Shown here in pieces: positions 3,164 to 55,091 of a stretch of DNA of 64,000 bases. Numbering within the stretch: the stretch's first letter is position 1; each line of letters begins with the position of its first letter. The DNA is from an uncultured Gemmatimonadales bacterium (lineage in GTDB: Bacteria; Gemmatimonadota; Gemmatimonadetes; Gemmatimonadales; GWC2-71-9): the NCBI GenBank assembly GCA_963761885.1, contig CAVXIN010000005.1, forward strand, positions 55,734 through 119,733, in the 5' to 3' direction. The translations under genes were made by a program, and so were the position numbers. A model generated the notes under the pieces. It worked only from the letters and a program-made list of their open reading frames with translations. It was not told the DNA's origin and did no database searches.

Positions 3164-5160
<1,997 letters not shown>

Positions 5161-6746: not shown

Positions 6747-8278
6747 ACCACTCGATCTCGGCACGCCGTTCGGCGTCACGCTCGCGCTGCTGCCGGAGCT
6801 GCTGCTCTGCCGGCTGGTCGCTGATCGTCCTGCTGGTGGTGAGCTGGCGGCACGAGACCGCCGCGGACAGCCGGCTCGCCGGGGTGGCTCAGCCTCGCGG
6901 GTCTGGTCGTCAGCGGCCGCGCGGCGCTGGCTGGCTCTGGATGGGCGGCGCCCGCCCGGAGGGCTGCCCTCAGATGATCGCGCTCGACGGCGTTCCGCTT
7001 CGCGCGCGCTGGCGCTGATCCTGCTCGCCGCCGGCGGCACGATCCTGCTCTCGCTCGGCTACCTGGAGCGGGAGCGGCTGCTCTGCGCCCGAGTACTACC
7101 CGCTGGTGCTCTTCGCCGACGGCGGGCATGATGTTCCTGGCCGGCGCCGAGGACCTGATCGTGCTCTTCCTCGGCCTCGAGGTCATGTCGGTCGCGGTGT
7201 ACGTGCTGGCCGGGTTCAACCGGCCGAGCCCGTCGTCCGTCCGAGGCGGCGCTCAAGTACTTCCTCATCGGCGCGTTCGCCTCCGGCGTTCCTGCTCTAC
7301 GGCATCGCGCTGGTGTACGGCGCCACCGGCACCACCAACCTGTCGCTCATCGGCGCGCAGCTCGCCGGGCGGCCGCTGCCGCTCATGGCGGCGCTGGGCC
7401 TGGGCCTGCTGCTGATCGGCATCGCCTTCAAGGTCGCCGCCGTGCCGTTCCACATGTGGGCGCCCGACGTGTACGACGGCTCGCCCACGCCGGTCACCGG
7501 GTTCATGGCCACCGGCGTCAAGGCGGCGGCGTTCGCGGCGCTGGTTCGCGTGCTGCTGGTGGCGTTCCCGTCGGCGCACCGAGGTCTGGCAGCCGGTCAT
7601 CGCCGGGCTGGCCATGGCCTCGATGGTGGTGGGCAACCTGGTGGCGCTCGCCCAGCGCTCGCTCAAGCGGATGCTGGCGTACAGCTCGATCGCCCACGCC
7701 GGGTACCTGCTGGTCGCGGTCTGGACCGGGACCCAGGCGGGCGCGGGGGCGGTGCTGCCTGTACCTGCTGGCCTACGCGCTCACCACGCTCGCGAGCTTC
7801 GGGTTCCTGACCGTGCTGGGCCGGGGCGGGGAGCGGGACGTGACCTACGACGCCATCGCGGGGCTCGCCGCCACGCGCCCTGGCATCGCGCTCGGCGCTC
7901 AGCGGTCTGCATGCTGTCGCTGCTGGGCTTCCCCGGCACGTTCGGCTTCATCGGCAAGTGGTACATCCTGACGGCGATGGTCGCCGAGGACCAGATGCTC
8001 CTGCCGGTGATCATCGTGCTCACCAGCGTGCGTCTCGGCAGGCTACTATCTGCCGGTGATCATGGCCATGTACATGCGGTCCGCGCCGAGCGGTGAGCGC
8101 GACGCCGTCGATCGGACTGAGCCCCACGGCCGCCGCCGCGATCGGCCTCTCCGTCGTGGTCGTGCTGCTGCTCGGCGTCTGGCCCCGGAGCGTCGCTCGA
8201 GATCGCCGGGGCGAGCGCTCGGTCCCTGACCCAGACCGCGCTGCCAGCGAGCCGGTGGCCGGCCGCGGAACCCCATGA
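6743..8278 (+). pseudogene. nuoN: NADH-quinone oxidoreductase subunit N, heavily frame-disrupted; ends approximate
   Basis: ATG 6743 is preceded by GGGAGG. Fragments are [133 protein letters not shown] and [10 protein letters not shown], in alternating frames (about 12 breaks). The candidate stop TGA 8276-8278 overlaps the next ATG. Confidence 0.85.
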
Positions 8279-20245: not shown

Positions 20246-21488
20246 TTGGCGAAACGTGTCGTCGTCACCGGCCTCGGGCTGGTGACCCCGGTCGGGAACG
20301 ACGTCGATTCCACCTGGTCCGCGCTGCTGGCGGGCACGCCCGGCGCCGCCCCGATCAAGAAGTTCGACCCCGCCGCGCTCTCGGTCCGATTCGCGTGCGA
20401 GGTCAAGGGCTTCGATCCGCTGCAGTACATCGACAGGAAGGAAGCGCGAAGGTACGACCTCTTCGCGCAGTTCGCCCTGGCGGCGGCGCACCAGGCCGTC
20501 ACCCAGGCCGGGCTCGATCGCGACGTGCCCGCCCCCGAGCGCACCGGTGTGGTGATCGGAAGCGGCATCGGTGGCATGCAGACCTACGAGGACAACTGCC
20601 GGGCGTACATCACCAAGGGCCCCGACCGGGTCTCTCCATTCTTCGTGCCGATGTTCATCCCCGACATCGCCGCCGGCCTGGTGTCCATTCGGTACGGGCT
20701 CAAGGGACCGAACTTCGCCACGGTGTCGGCCTGCGCGTCGTCGGCGCACGCGATCGGCGAGTCGTTCAACCTCATCCGCAATGGCATGGCCGACGCCATG
20801 GTCACCGGCGGGGCCGAGGCCTCGATCACGGGGCTGACCGTCGCCGCCTTCTCCAACATGAAGGCGCTGTCGGCGCGCAACGACAGTCCCGAGACCGCCA
20901 GTCGCCCGTTCGACCGCGACCGCGATGGCTTCGTGCTGGCCGACGGCGGCGCGATCGTGGTGCTCGAGAGCCTCGAGCACGCGGAACGGCGGGGCGCCAC
21001 GATCCTCGGCGAGGTGCTCGGGTACGGCGCCAGCGGCGACGCCTACCACATCACCTCGCCGGCCGAGCATGGCGAGGGCGCGCAGCGCGCGATGCGCGCC
21101 TCTCTTGCCGACGGAGGCATCGACCCGGCGCGCGTGGACTACATCAACGCCCACGGCACCTCGACCCAGCAGGGCGACGTCGCGGAGACCGAGGCGGTCA
21201 AGGCGGTGTTCGGGGAACAGGCGCGCAAGCTCGTGTTCGGGTCCACCAAGTCGATGACCGGCCACCTGCTAGGCGCCGCCGGTGCGCTCGAGTTCGGCGT
21301 CTGCCTCCTGGTCACCAGCTGCGGCGTCCTCCCTCCGACGATCAACCAGTTCACGTCCGATCCCGAGTGCGATCTCGACTGCGCGCCCAACCACAAGATC
21401 GAGCGCAAGGTGGATGTCGCGGTGTCCAACTCCTTCGGATTCGGCGGGCACAACGTCTCCCTCGCTCGTGAGCGCCTTCCGAGCCTGA
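20246..21488 (+). pseudogene. fabF: 3-oxoacyl-ACP synthase II, one frame break about 8 codons before the stop
   Basis: ..VVVTGLGLVTPVG..SACASSAHAIG..NAHGTSTQQGD..GHLLGAAGALE..SFGFGGHNVSL. The natural-looking end LVSAFRA-stop (TGA 21486-21488) is in the next frame after ~21463. As assembled, the ORF instead runs on to 21670. Confidence 0.9.
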
Positions 21489-21585
21489 GTCCCCTCCCGC
21501 CAACAGCCCGGGAGCGCGCTGGCACGCCGCGCCGCACCGGGTGTACATTCCGGCATCGTTACCTCCGCAGCCGCAAGGAGATAGG

Positions 21586-23618: not shown

Positions 23619-24677
23619 ATGAGCGTTGTAGATCGCACCTCAAGTGAGTTCGTAGATCTTCTCGACCTCTATCAGCGAGCGCCCCTGCTGGAGCTGGGAC
23701 AACTGGCCGACGCCGAGCGGTGGCGCCAGCATCCCGAGCCCGTGGTCACCTACATCATCGATCGCAACATCAACTACACCAACGTCTGCGTCGCGGACTG
23801 CAAGTTCTGCGCGTTTTATCGCCGGCCGCGCCACGCCGAGGGATACGTGCTCAGCTTCGAGGAGATCGGCGCCAAGATCGACGAGTGCAAGTCGATCGGC
23901 GGGGTGCAGATTCTTCTGCAAGGCGGGCACAACCCCTACATCCCGTTCGACTGGTACCTCGAGCTGATGCGCTACATCAAGCGGCATCACCCGATCCACA
24001 TCCACGGATTCTCCCCCAGCGAAGTGGTCTTCTTCAGCGAGCGCTTCGGACTGTCGGTACCGGATGTCGTCCGTGAGCTGCGCGAAGCCGGCCTGGACAG
24101 CATCCCTGGGGGAGGCGGCGAGATCCTGGTGGACGAGATCCGCGAGCGGGTGGCCAGGAAGAAGGCCCAGACCGAGGAGTGGCTCGGAGTTCAGGAGGAA
24201 GCGCACCGGCAAGGTATGAAGACCTCCGTCACCATGATGTACGGCCTCGGTGAGAGCGACGCGGACCGCCTCGAGCACCTTTTCCGGGTGCGCGAGGTAC
24301 AGGCGCGCACTGGCGGTTTCACCGCGTTCATCTGCTGGCCGCTCCAGCCGGAGGGGACGCCGGAGATGTCGCACTATCAGAAGACCGATGCCGTCACTTA
24401 CCTCCGGACCCTCGCGCTGGCGCGCATCGTCCTCCGGAACGTGCCGAATCTCCAGTCGTCCTGGGTGACGATGGGACACAAGGTGGGGCAGGTGGCGCTC
24501 CGGTTCGGTGCGAACGACTATGGCAGCCTGATGATGGAAGAGAACGTCGTATCCGCGGCGGGTACCACCTACCGCACCACCCTGGGTGAGATCGACCGGA
24601 TCATCCGCGATGCCGGGTATCAGCCGCGGCGGCGGCGGCAGGATTATGTGGTCATCGAGGACAGCGTAGCTGCATGA
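23619..24677 (+). CDS. mqnC: radical-SAM cyclic dehypoxanthine futalosine synthase (MqnC-like)
   Basis: ..YIIDRNINYTNVCVADCKFCAFYR..ILLQGGHNP..TMMYGLGE..ANDYGSLMMEENV..; 352 aa. Confidence 0.8.
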   Translation: MSVVDRTSSEFVDLLDLYQRAPLLELGQLADAERWRQHPEPVVTYIIDRNINYTNVCVADCKFCAFYRRPRHAEGYVLSFEEIGAKIDECKSIGGVQILLQGGHNPYIPFDWYLELMRYIKRHHPIHIHGFSPSEVVFFSERFGLSVPDVVRELREAGLDSIPGGGGEILVDEIRERVARKKAQTEEWLGVQEEAHRQGMKTSVTMMYGLGESDADRLEHLFRVREVQARTGGFTAFICWPLQPEGTPEMSHYQKTDAVTYLRTLALARIVLRNVPNLQSSWVTMGHKVGQVALRFGANDYGSLMMEENVVSAAGTTYRTTLGEIDRIIRDAGYQPRRRRQDYVVIEDSVAA

Positions 24678-24679
24678 GA

Positions 24680-24782
24680 GGCGGACGGGCGGACGGGCGG
24701 ACGGGCGGACAACGGCTCCGAACACAGAGGGTCGGTGCGCACCGCGAACCCGTCCGCCCTTCCGCCTGTCCGCCCGTCCGCC
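24680..24782. repeat. hairpin element copy A: 4x GGCGGACG-type octamers, 39-nt spacer, 4x inverted octamers; flanked by direct repeat CATGAGA(G)
   Basis: The left arm (24680-24711) and right arm (24751-24782) are complementary at 29 of 32 positions. The spacer contains the palindrome GGTGCGCACC (24734-24743). Direct repeats lie at 24673-24680 and 24783-24790. Confidence 0.85.
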
Positions 24783-24783
24783 C

Positions 24784-25257
24784 ATGAGAGTCGGCATCGG
24801 CTACGACTCGCACCGGTTCACCGACGGCAGGCCCCTGGTCCTGGCCGGTGTTCGCATTCCGGGCGAGCGGGGACTCGCCGGTCACTCGGATGCGGACGCC
24901 GTCGCTCACGCCCTCACCGACGCCATTCTGGGGGCCGCGGCGGCGGGCAACATCGGGCAACTCTTTCCCGACACCGACCCGCAGTGGAAGGACGCGGACT
25001 CGATGGAGCTCCTGCGGACCGCACATGAGCTGGTGCGCGGGCGCGGCTTCGCCTTCGTGCAGGCCGATCTGACCGTCATCACCGAGGCGCCGAGGCTTGC
25101 CCCTCATCTCGTGGCCATGGCGGCGTCGCTCGCGGGGCGGCTCGGCGTCTCGGCCGGCGCCGTCGGCGTCAAGGCGAAGACCAACGAAGGCATGGGCTTC
25201 ATCGGCCGGGGCGAGGGGCTCGCCGTCATCGCCGTGGCGGTGCTGGAGGCACGCTGA
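24784..25257 (+). CDS. ispF: 2-C-methyl-D-erythritol 2,4-cyclodiphosphate synthase
   Basis: [40 protein letters not shown]; 157 aa. Confidence 0.95.
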
Positions 25258-40887: not shown

Positions 40888-41435
40888 CGCGGGCAAGGCG
40901 TCCCGGGTCCGCGTGCTCGCATTGGACGTGGACGGTGTGCTGACCGACAATGGGATCTGGATCGGGCCGGTGCAGGGTGCGCGGATCGAGCTCAAGCGGT
41001 TCGACATCCAGGACGGCCTCGGCCTCCGACTAGTGCGCACGGCGGGCATTCCGATCGTGTGGCTGAGCGGGCGGCATTCCGAGGCTACGGCAATGCGCGC
41101 CGCCGAGCTGCAGATGGACGAGGTGCTGCAGGTCCCCGGCCCGGAAAAGCTGGCGGCCATGGAGGGCGTGCGCGCACGGCGCGGCCTCGAGTGGGAGGAG
41201 CTGGCCTTCGTGGGCGACGACCTGGCCGACCTCCAGGTGATGCGCAGGGTGGGTCTGCCCATAGCCGTGGCCAACGCCGTGCTCGAAATCCGCGCGGTCG
41301 CGGACTGCGTGACCAGCGCGCGAGGGGGCTACGGCGCCGTGCGTGAGGTCGCCGATGCGCTGCTCAGGGCGCGCGGCGTGTGGCCCGAGATGCTCGAGCG
41401 CTACTTCAGCGATCACGCCGCACGCAATGCGCTGA
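40877..41435 (+). CDS. kdsC: Kdo-8-phosphate phosphatase (HAD-IIIA); 3' end uncertain
   Basis: ..[51 protein letters not shown]... As assembled the frame stays open to 41569. A stop at 41433-41435 is reached only after a one-base shift, so the end is a guess based on family length. Confidence 0.65.
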
Positions 41436-42390
41436 TACCGGGGCGCTGGTGGAGCTGGGCCGGCGGGTGCTGCGCCTGGAGGCCTCCGCGGTCGCCGCGA
41501 TCGCCGACCGGCTCGATAGCAGGTTCGCGGAGGCGGCGCTGCTCATTCAGCAGGCGAAGGGGCGGGTGATCGTGTCTGGTGTGGGGAAGTCCGGGCTGGT
41601 GGCGCGCAAGATCGCCTCGACACTGACATCGACCGGCACGCCGGCGAGCTACCTGCATCCGATCGATTCGCTCCATGGCGATCTGGGCATCGTCGGGGCC
41701 GACGACGTGGCGATCGTGCTGAGCAAGAGCGGGCATTCCCAGGACCTGTTCGGCCTGCTCGGATCGCTCCAGCGTCTGGGCGTGCCGATCATCGCGGTGA
41801 CGGGCGGGATCGAGTCGGGGCTCGCGCGCGTGGCCCGAGTGGTCCTCGATGCATCCGTGGCCGAGGAGGCCTGCCCCCACGACCTGGCGCCGACGTCCAG
41901 CACGACGGCCGCCCTGGCGGTGGGCGACGCGCTCGCGATGGCGGTACTCGAGCTCAAGGGATTTCGGCGGGAGCAGTTCGCCGAGCTGCATCCGGGAGGC
42001 AGCCTCGGCCGCCGACTGTTGCTGCGCGTCCGGGATGTCATGCTGCCCCCGGGTCGTCTGCTGGCGCCCCAGGCCACGATGCGCGAGGCCGTCGTCAGCC
42101 TGGCCCGCGATCGCGGGATCGCCCTGGTCGGCGAGGGCGGGCAGCTCCGAGGCGTGGTCACCACCGGCGACCTCACCCGGCTGGCCGAGCGGGATCCCGA
42201 CTTTCTGGGTCGCCCGGTGTCGCAGGTGATGTCCTCCGATCCCAAGACCGCCGGCCCCGACGATCTCGCGGCCGCCGCGGTGGGGACGATGCAGGCGAAG
42301 GGCGTGATCGTACTGCCCGTCGTCTCCGGCGGCGGCGCGGTCGAGGGCGTGGTCCACCTCCACGACCTGATGCGCGCGGGGGCGGTGTGA
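41380..42390 (+). CDS. kdsD: arabinose-5-phosphate isomerase (KdsD/KpsF/GutQ)
   Basis: SIS domain ..GRVIVSGVGKSGLVARKIASTLTSTGTPASYLHP..GDLG.. plus two CBS repeats. The start is uncertain: ATG 41380 overlaps the kdsC tail, and GTG 41449 is an alternative. Confidence 0.85.
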   Translation: MARDARALLQRSRRTQCADTGALVELGRRVLRLEASAVAAIADRLDSRFAEAALLIQQAKGRVIVSGVGKSGLVARKIASTLTSTGTPASYLHPIDSLHGDLGIVGADDVAIVLSKSGHSQDLFGLLGSLQRLGVPIIAVTGGIESGLARVARVVLDASVAEEACPHDLAPTSSTTAALAVGDALAMAVLELKGFRREQFAELHPGGSLGRRLLLRVRDVMLPPGRLLAPQATMREAVVSLARDRGIALVGEGGQLRGVVTTGDLTRLAERDPDFLGRPVSQVMSSDPKTAGPDDLAAAAVGTMQAKGVIVLPVVSGGGAVEGVVHLHDLMRAGAV

Positions 42391-42392
42391 GG

Positions 42393-42519
42393 GGCGGACG
42401 GGCGGACGGGCGGACGGGCGGAAGGAACAGTCGTGCCGCTCGGAAGGGCTGCGGCCGGAGAGGACGCTCGGGCGCGTAGAGCATGCGTTTCCGCCCTTCC
42501 GCCCTTCCGCCCGTCCGCC
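42393..42519. repeat. hairpin element copy B: GGCGGACG x3 + GGCGGAAG, 63-nt spacer, 4 inverted octamers
   Basis: Left arm 42393-42424 and right arm 42488-42519 are complementary at 29 of 32 positions. The arms are near-identical to copy A but the spacer is unrelated. It begins 2 nt after the kdsD stop. Confidence 0.85.
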
Positions 42520-55017: not shown

Positions 55018-55091
55018 TGCCCCCGGCGTGACTCGAACACGCGGCCAACAGTTTAGGAAACTGCTGCTCTATCCATCTGAGCTACGGGGGC
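55018..55091 (-). tRNA. tRNA-Arg (anticodon CCT)
   Basis: The reverse complement GCCCCCGTAGCTCAGATGGATAGAGCAGCAGTTTCCTAAACTGTTGGCCGCGTGTTCGAGTCACGCCGGGGGCA folds by hand into a full cloverleaf. It has a 7-bp acceptor stem, GCTC/GAGC D stem, anticodon loop TTCCTAA, GCGTG/CACGC T stem, TTCGAGT T loop and discriminator A. CCA is not encoded. Confidence 0.95.

Follow-up and report, generated by a model that had tools for sequence, protein, structure and literature searches.

In a 64,000-nt stretch of DNA from an uncultured Gemmatimonadales bacterium (contig CAVXIN010000005.1; hereafter the window), the genes mqnC and ispF are separated by a hairpin element, copy A, in which two arrays of tandem octamers face each other across a short loop. 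Copy A is a lineage-specific insertion into an ancestral 4-nt NTGA stop/start overlap, accompanied by a 7–8-nt target duplication, and it is a member of a hairpin class dispersed among Gemmatimonadota in which a 6–8-nt array, usually G-rich, is followed by a non-conserved loop and a complementary array. The duplicated target places ATGA at both ends of the insert, and an open reading frame (ORF) that crosses both arms and the loop free of stop codons, here called the relay ORF, joins the one to the other. We consider it fairly probable that this insertion of a class member is selfish or neutral, tolerated as the duplication and the frame restore the translational coupling of mqnC to ispF by way of the relay ORF.

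Copy A and the mqnC–ispF overlap

The organization of the junction is given below. Homologs of the window MqnC at 93–94% identity carry the name MqnC, and the top homologs of both MqnC and KdsD, the latter encoded further downstream in the window, are from Gemmatimonadales metagenome-assembled genomes (MAGs; 93–94% identity).

23619–24677, forward strand: mqnC (cyclic dehypoxanthinyl futalosine synthase); TIGR03699, 460 bits against a cut-off of 428; TGA stop at 24675–24677
24673–24680, forward strand: left copy of the duplicated target CATGAGA(G), in which the relay-ORF ATG and the mqnC stop overlap as ATGA
24674–24787, forward strand: relay mini-ORF (37 codons and a stop), with an ATG that overlaps the mqnC TGA and a TGA (24785–24787) that overlaps the ispF ATG
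24680–24711, forward strand: 5' arm, three copies of GGCGGACG followed by GGCGGACA; G-rich and free of T
24712–24750, forward strand: spacer or loop of 39 nt, with the palindrome GGTGCGCACC at 24734–24743
24751–24782, forward strand: 3' arm, four inverted octamers NNTCCGCC in the order CGTCCGCC CTTCCGCC TGTCCGCC CGTCCGCC; free of A
24783–24790, forward strand: right copy of the duplicated target CATGAGA(G), containing the ispF ATG (24784) and the relay-ORF stop
24784–25257, forward strand: ispF (MEcPP synthase); TIGR00151, 193 bits

Direct reading and a script both placed CATGAGAG at 24673–24680 and again at 24783–24790, and bore out the coordinates, octamers, palindrome, arm pairing and flanking repeat described in a first-pass annotation of this DNA. 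The arms pair at 29 of 32 positions and constitute terminal inverted repeats, which take the form of tandem octamer arrays and not of unique sequences. The insert measures 103 nt, or 110 nt together with the duplication, and removal of positions 24680–24789 in silico yields GCTGCATGAGAGTCGGC. Within the window, the octamer pattern occurs 13 times against 2.0 expected, with 12 of the 13 matches falling at two sites, copy A and a second hairpin, copy B, between kdsD and lptC; a 7-mer direct repeat at the spacing seen for copy A is present at 18 of 62,000 window positions. The predicted RNA fold of copy A is a 32-bp stem of −89.9 kcal/mol (z = −7.5 against shuffled sequences). A scan of the window for intrinsic terminators returned nothing at copy A, which has no T-run and is followed after the stem by CATGAGAGTCGGC. 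An Rfam search of the window at the gathering threshold left copy A unmatched, the sole match above threshold being a tRNA gene at 55018–55091 on the reverse strand, and relaxed searches returned only miRNA-precursor matches far under threshold (for example, 39.7 against 97 bits). A canonical G-quadruplex (G4) motif (G3+N1-7 x4) is found on neither strand of copy A. The asymmetry of G·U wobble pairs was considered as a sign of selection at the RNA level and set aside as uninformative, one wobble being possible on either strand.

The empty site that the first-pass annotation had predicted is found, with G instead of A, in three close syntenic relatives (L199, L200 and L212; L numbers label the loci used for comparison). 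In all three, the junction is GCGGCGTGAGAGTCGGCATCGGC, in the context ...GCGGCGTGAGAGTCGGCATCGGCTACGAC..., and the empty site GCGTGAGAGTCGGC is a 4-nt stop/start overlap with GTG where the window has ATG. L212 shares 94% MqnC identity with the window; L199 and L200 share 93%, with approximately 82% DNA identity and the gene order of the window. BLAST aligned the lone TGAGAGTCGG of the relatives to window positions 24675–24684 and also to 24785–24794, and for both L199 and L212 the alignments to the two sides of the insert share 10 nt. As the one copy in these relatives matches both flanks, the flanking repeat is a true target duplication, in agreement with the earlier annotation. A metagenome scan with the MqnC C-terminus furnished 80 mqnC junctions from relatives, approximately 25 of which overlap by 1–4 nt at the stop/start (for example, GCGTGACCCGGGTGGGG and GCATGATCCGAGTCGG); the overlap is therefore the ancestral state.

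Overlapping stop and start codons are the commonest means of coupling the translation of adjacent genes, and an insertion at such an overlap is expected to be damaging. At copy A, the ATG-to-ATG distance is 110 nt, or 2 mod 3, and the frame so defined is free of stops; a 37-codon ORF therefore bridges the insert exactly. Like MIRU elements, copy A thus has an ORF within it that overlaps the upstream stop codon at its start and the downstream start codon at its stop. We infer translation of the relay ORF from this geometry. Ribosomes that end mqnC would re-initiate at the overlapping AUG, translation of the relay ORF would melt the hairpin, and ribosomes terminating at the UGA that overlaps the ispF AUG would then re-initiate on ispF. 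The ispF ATG is positioned 1 nt past the final paired base of the stem, and the sequence upstream is without a purine-rich Shine-Dalgarno sequence; as ispF lacks a Shine-Dalgarno sequence of its own and starts at the foot of a −90 kcal/mol stem, IspF synthesis would depend on the ribosomes delivered by the relay ORF. Coupling between mqnC and ispF is thus probably relayed, not broken. The first-pass annotation had proposed that the hairpin separates two formerly coupled genes: the former overlap is real, while the loss of coupling is not supported, since the 37-codon ORF bridges the insert from ATGA to ATGA. A search of the relay peptide against 1.84 billion protein representatives returned one weak match, which is uninformative given how short and biased the query is. 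Copy A would then most likely be selfish or neutral DNA that persists through its compatibility with translation, with effects on the mRNA (an RNase III site, a barrier to 3' exonucleases) as possible by-products.

Copy A is not the only insert to have arisen here. In other lineages, the mqnC–ispF junction holds at least eight independent and unrelated hairpin inserts at exactly this position. L119 (93% identity) carries (CAGCGGGG)4 ... (CTGCCCCG)4 with a relay ORF of 43 codons; the syntenic L201–203 (93% identity) carry a 145-nt composite with an inner REP-like hairpin and a relay ORF of 50 codons; and the L158 and L186 inserts are built as (GGGAACA)n ... (GATTCCC / GGTTCCC)n. Shorter GC hairpins occupy the junction in L189 (relay ORF of 38 codons), L195 (10 codons) and L122/130 (5 codons). 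A nested series (L134, L123, L135, L128 and L129) shares identical flanks around inserts that range from 16 to approximately 267 nt, and the relay ORFs of its first four members span 7, 14, 28 and 60 codons, respectively, the frame being kept across three changes in length. In L158, L186, L165 and L146, the original GTGA start reads through the insert in the frame of ispF. Approximately 15 of the 17 inserts behind an NTGA overlap are coupling-competent, against a rough chance estimate of 0.5–0.55; with alleles that are partly non-independent, this recurrence is a strong suggestion, and not proof, that coupling is kept. Short direct repeats that contain (A/G)TGA flank several of the inserts (8 of 9 nt in L195, 6 nt in L189 and 4 nt in L119), and the flanking repeats among the junction inserts range from 4 to 9 nt.

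Relative to L128, L129 possesses an extra tandem duplication of approximately 46 nt at ~1370–1460 (CCGGCGGAGCGC(C/T)CACCGCGCCGCCCC...), which shifts the length class of the insert and breaks the relay ORF. A second, REP-like palindrome family with the core GTCATCC(C/T)GAGCG(A/G)AGCGA(G/A)GGAT... occurs at L199 9922–9966, between an mqnA-like gene and mqnC; at L201 11096–11165, inside the mqnC–ispF insert of L201–203; at L079 ~410–520, where it is nested in the loop of a GGCGGAAG hairpin; and at L196 ~725–745.

A dispersed class of array hairpins

A GGCGGAMGGGCGGAMGGGCGGA scan of one genome per species detected at least 118 loci, mostly in Gemmatimonadales MAGs. Among the matches listed, approximately 16 loci in Gemmatimonadales and other Gemmatimonadota MAGs possess the full GGCGGANG hairpin, with loops of 42–147 nt that are unlike one another; the further copies that the mobile-element proposal of the first-pass annotation called for thus exist, both as copy B in the window and in many of these MAGs. 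Many contigs end within arrays, and a contig end inside an array is the usual sign of a multicopy repeat. Solo octamer arrays, up to ~78 nt long in the examples inspected and without an inverted partner nearby, were observed in Streptomyces and Kitasatospora (L005, L009, L013, L089, L115, L117 and others).

A generic search, for arrays detected by TRF that have their reverse complement no more than 300 nt away, extended the class beyond the octamer. It retrieved approximately 40 paired-array hairpins built from 22 different 6–8-nt units (CGGGAAA, CGGTGAA, GGCGATTG, GAGAAGT and CGGACAGA, for example), several of which may share a genome or even a contig, and the unit number frequently differs between the two arms (3.9 and 13.5 in one example). 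For paired arrays, only the distinction between convergent and divergent geometry is informative; 27 of 31 hairpins are convergent, their purine/G-rich array forming the 5' arm on either strand. Relative to the stop codon upstream, the 5' array begins between −2 and +5 nt in all 15 evaluable cases, and at 2 nt for both copy A and copy B; a minority of the hairpins reside inside genes. Two candidate features were rejected: i) how the G-rich arm is oriented with respect to the gene is uninformative, as an inverted repeat has the form 5'-X...rc(X)-3' whichever strand is read, and ii) units free of stop codons, tested as a design feature, make up 18 of the 22 distinct units against 0.74–0.81 expected from composition, which is not significant.

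The interior of these elements is not conserved. The loop of copy A has no homology to the loop of any other copy; the loops of copies A and B do not align with each other and have no match in approximately 1.5 Mb of retrieved loci, in which no donor copy was found; and copies within the same genome also differ in their loops. The longest flanking direct repeats, measured over 32 hairpins, average 3.6 nt against 4.0 nt in the null, with only copy A possessing one. All-against-all clustering of the ORFs within ~4–8 kb of the 118 array loci revealed no recurrent protein family, transposase-like or other, and no RAYT close to the arrays; the octamer pattern was present in only two viral contigs, and a literature search for such repeats in Gemmatimonadetes/Gemmatimonas found nothing relevant. 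Side observations were made at three of the loci. In L003, (CGGGAAA)n hairpins at 4616–4695 and 7198–7268 directly follow the stops of paralogous minus-strand genes whose products end in ...DPVEALRYE, a terminus that we take to be typical of FtsX/MacB-type permeases. At L001 3740–4045 and L100 2122–2237, the arrays are nested in longer unique palindromes (for example, CTCGGCCGCGAGGAAGGGG ... CCCCTTCCTCGCGGCCGAG), which suggests that arrays can expand inside existing hairpins.

Copy B illustrates how an older member of the class is accommodated. Its features are as follows.

42393–42519, forward strand: copy B; 5' arm at 42393–42424 (GGCGGACG three times plus GGCGGAAG), loop of ~63–65 nt, 3' arm at 42488–42519
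42420–42435, forward strand: Shine-Dalgarno-like GGAAGGAA at 42420–42427 and GTG at 42433, inside copy B, with the GTG in the loop

Copy B begins 2 nt beyond the kdsD stop (TGA 42388–42390), and its forward strand carries a canonical G3+N5 x4 motif. The window ORF that starts at the GTGA overlap (42387) meets a TAG at 42477, and upstream of the LptC signal peptide (…LLALSPLVAC) the GTG at 42433 is the one in-frame start that is plausible, LptC itself matching TIGR04409. We infer that LptC starts at GTG 42433 and that the 3' arm of copy B (…VSALPPFRPSAA…) encodes part of the LptC N-terminus. In L204, which shares 86% identity with the window across 21 kb, the sole indel of at least 12 nt lies in the copy B loop; L204 possesses a degenerate copy B of 3+2 units through which the GTGA start is in frame with LptC. 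At the same kdsD–lptC junction, L207/208 carry 3+1 units (GGCGGAAC), and in L209–211 the LptC N-terminus MGGGPADRRTAV is encoded by a row of three tandem GGCGGACC units. The hairpin class thus has both recent gains, as copy A, and old resident copies, as copy B. In the resident copies, the arms stay near the unit consensus while the loops and the unit numbers vary, which hints at constraint on the arms or at their homogenization.

Family members are also translated in frame. Seven hairpins (L073 5678–5829; L103 7522–7615; L054 7347–7518; L040 7148–7244; L018 3445–3579; L051 5129–5275; L086 3595–3704) are in frame inside long ORFs with high G+C content at third codon positions, and Pfam supports five of the contexts. 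A Lon protease has gained 52 residues between its N-domain and its AAA+ domain. The Ser/Thr kinase domain of a Planctomycetota MAG and a radical SAM domain each hold one in-frame hairpin, and another forms part of the linker that joins a 2-oxoglutarate dehydrogenase N-terminal domain to a 2-oxoacid dehydrogenase acyltransferase domain in one protein. Two aldehyde dehydrogenase (ALDH) domains are separated by a hairpin whose position is identical in three species (L018, L051 and L086), where the element may have fused two genes. At four further loci (L070, L063, L021 and the above-mentioned L204), an ORF with an NTGA start reads through the hairpin into the downstream gene. Only the segments encoded by the arms (GGRADGRTGG / RPPVRPSA) recur; the loop peptides differ.

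Two observations on the surrounding genes stand apart from the hairpins. The KdsD ORF upstream of copy B (41380–42390) is listed as 336 aa, while its homologs are 320 aa and cover 95% of it, and the true start is probably ~16 codons downstream; one KdsD homolog (P0124) is 100% identical over 274 aa. At 21456–21518, the window has approximately 60 nt where the syntenic relatives possess a gene of ~4.1 kb between fabF and mqnE (L199 3453–7565; L201 3474–7541), a minus-strand gene for a hybrid CheB/CheR-PAS-histidine kinase-receiver protein.

Origin and role of the hairpins

The reading of copy A as selfish or neutral DNA made tolerable by its relay ORF has to be weighed against several observations. 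The frame condition for one insert has a 1-in-3 chance of arising, and the coupling-recurrence statistic draws on alleles that are not fully independent. In L129, a gain of 92 nt puts the insert in the wrong length class (1 mod 3) and the relay ORF is lost at an early TAG, and the allele persists all the same. In L148, L160 and L176, the insert comes after a TAG or CTGA stop that no start codon overlaps. Among related junctions free of an intervening gene, nearly half bear some hairpin, which could instead mean selection for structure there. Lastly, orthologous arms (in copy B and in the ALDH series) stay near consensus while the loops diverge, which a purely neutral view leaves unexplained.

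A possible account of origin, which we hold tentatively, is that the element grew in place: a duplication at the junction would give rise to a short palindrome that lengthens unit by unit through slippage, with template switching copying one arm into the other. This account bears on origin alone and can stand alongside a selfish or neutral insertion bridged by a relay ORF. The kdsD–lptC junction offers the graded series that such growth would leave behind, from three units plus a mini-partner (L209–211) through 3+1 (L207/208) and 3+2 (L204) to 4+4 in the window, and unit variants (ACC, AAC and ACG) are lineage-specific. The inequality of the arms (3.9 against 13.5 units) and the nesting of the L001 and L100 arrays within longer unique palindromes fit the same scheme, as do the unique loops, the lack of flanking duplications as a family trait, the absence of a transposase nearby, and the match of 11 of 12 bases to the target at the left junction of copy A. 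Growth in place accounts less readily for the octamer and its variants being shared by copies A and B and by many loci in many genomes, and for the recurrence of other units (CGGTGAA in both L056 and L070, CGGGAAA twice in L003). Moreover, copy A is complete, with four clean units in each arm, against empty sites at 82% DNA identity, and no intermediate was seen there.

It is rather unlikely, in our estimation, that the hairpin is a selected regulatory structure akin to the REP/BIME elements of E. coli operons, a partial terminator, RNase III site or 3' exonuclease barrier that sets the levels of the menaquinone genes against that of ispF, with hairpins repeatedly recruited to the mqnC–ispF junction as uncoupling is advantageous. 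The great stability of the 32-bp stem (−89.9 kcal/mol) and the at least eight unrelated hairpin inserts at this junction across lineages would be expected of such a structure; the arrays abut stop codons, the position favored by REP elements and by the Xanthomonas repeats (PMC3733652, PMC4692102); and in orthologous copies the arms are kept while the loops drift. The closest relatives, however, are without the element and have a plain 4-nt overlap, and copy A offers neither a T-run nor a match to an Rfam family. Family members lie in frame inside essential genes such as Lon and inside a kinase domain, sites at which termination or processing would do harm, and the conservation of relay and in-frame arrangements suggests selection to keep coupling.

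The first-pass annotation had taken copy A for a small MITE/REP-like element, that is, a classical non-autonomous MITE (a miniature transposable element with inverted repeats), moved by cut and paste, whose inverted arms are recognized by a transposase that leaves a target duplication of fixed length. We regard this as quite improbable. Like the bacterial MITEs (Correia/NEMIS, ERIC, RUP and BOX; PMC10969869), the hairpins are small, multicopy and non-coding, with inverted ends, hairpin transcripts and insertion polymorphism among relatives; assemblies break at the arrays, the duplication at copy A is perfect over 7–8 nt and verified against the empty sites, and short direct repeats also flank the inserts of L195, L189 and L119. 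Against this, the interiors of different copies are unrelated, where MITEs have a conserved interior, and the termini are arrays of variable and often unequal copy number. No constant target duplication exists: repeats vary from 4 to 9 nt at the junction and are chance-like over the 32 hairpins elsewhere (3.6 against 4.0 nt), and only insertions that duplicate the overlap survive at a stop/start, such that the duplication at copy A may reflect survivorship. No candidate transposase recurs within ~4–8 kb of the 118 array loci, and the octamer pattern is nearly absent from viral contigs.

That the G-rich arrays act as DNA or RNA G-quadruplexes, as proposed for heptamers of Xanthomonas and Nostoc, with the inverted partner secondary, is very improbable. 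In its favor, copy B has a canonical motif (G3+N5 x4), arms of four units are the commonest size in Xanthomonas, in which G4 formation was shown in vitro (PMC4692102), and 27 of 31 hairpins place the purine/G-rich arm 5' on either strand. Against it, copy A lacks a canonical motif on either strand, many units have no G-tracts (CGGTGAA, GGCGATTG and GTTCCGA, for example), pairing with the complementary arm produces a much more stable duplex, and a regulatory role could not be shown in Xanthomonas.

Relation to known repeats and implications

While the first-pass annotation did not recognize the octamer-array architecture as a described one, convergent pairs of short-unit arrays behind ORF ends have been described for the GGGAATC heptamers of Xanthomonas campestris and X. 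citri. These arrays mostly comprise four units, are 89–93% intergenic, and begin on average 28 nt behind the upstream ORF; 70–75 convergent pairs per genome are able to form stem-loops; length and sequence vary between close relatives; and no transposase or function is reported as known (Rehm et al. 2015, PMC4692102). The Gemmatimonadota hairpins share with these pairs the tandem 6–9-nt units, approximately four per array, the convergent geometry, and the intergenic position near the end of the upstream ORF, and the Xanthomonas heptamer (GATTCCC)n is one arm of the L158 mqnC–ispF insert. They differ in the octamer GGCGGACG, in the at least 22 different units found within the phylum, in arrays that abut the stop (−2 to +5 nt, against a mean of 28 nt in Xanthomonas), and in the lack of a canonical G4 motif in copy A. 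The relay ORF, the in-frame intragenic copies and the insertion verified by empty sites are observed here and apparently do not figure in PMC4692102.

Two other repeat families resemble the hairpins in what they do. Mycobacterial interspersed repetitive units (MIRU) occur at start codons and intercistronic operon junctions and carry an internal ORF coupled at −4-nt spacing; its ends overlap the flanking stop and start, as at copy A, and coupling at MIRUs therefore survives the insertion (PMC12548453). MIRUs differ in architecture, being direct tandem units of 40–100 bp with conserved sequence, and are from a different phylum. We know of no MIRU that is a hairpin of inverted octamer arrays. RPE elements of Rickettsia are palindromic and lie in frame in unrelated protein-coding genes, where they are translated as extra peptide segments (PMC10969869, PMC3733652). 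The hairpin family, though not copy A itself, does likewise in Lon, the kinase, the radical SAM protein, the 2-oxoacid dehydrogenase and the ALDH fusion, and copy B does so in the LptC N-terminus. RPEs, however, are ~150 bp long with a conserved internal sequence and peptide and arms that are not tandem arrays, whereas here only the arms are conserved.

REP, BIME and REPIN elements are extragenic palindromes that lie mostly downstream of ORFs, between co-directional or convergent genes; they are often inverted dimers that form larger hairpins, with several families per genome and occasional intragenic copies, are mobilized by RAYT transposases, and have been assigned proposed roles in mRNA stability and termination (PMC3733652). 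The position behind ORFs, the several families per genome and the occasional intragenic copies are shared with the hairpins described here. A REP unit, in contrast, is itself a stem-loop (8–9 bp in the CGTC families) tagged with GTAG or CGTC (PMC3733652); the arm (GGCGGACG)4 is without self-complementarity, pairing takes place between the arms only, and CGTC lies within every unit and is not a terminal tag. On the defining features tested, the hairpins belong to neither the REP/REPIN nor the MITE families. Their closest described counterparts in architecture are the paired heptamers of Xanthomonas, and in behavior the MIRU (relay ORF) and the RPE (in-frame insertion).

Taken together, these findings extend paired short-unit arrays, little studied in Xanthomonas, to a major soil phylum. 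The elements explain contig breaks, mis-called starts (lptC and ispF) and spurious gene fusions in Gemmatimonadota MAGs, and they enter essential proteins in frame. The mqnC–ispF locus provides a natural pair of occupied and empty sites in close relatives and, with it, a test system for termination-reinitiation across a very stable hairpin. Speculatively, the hairpins of Gemmatimonadota, and perhaps of other phyla, may represent "palindromic microsatellites": arrays that spread or arise with no transposase of their own, are seeded directly behind stop codons or at stop/start overlaps, grow by slippage, retain their complementarity by hairpin-templated copying or through a sequence-specific factor, and are routinely translated. 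If this is true, such arrays would be translated as relay ORFs, as N-terminal extensions and as in-frame linkers able to fuse neighboring genes, and they would constitute both a separate way for repeats to originate and a repeated supply of novel peptide segments.

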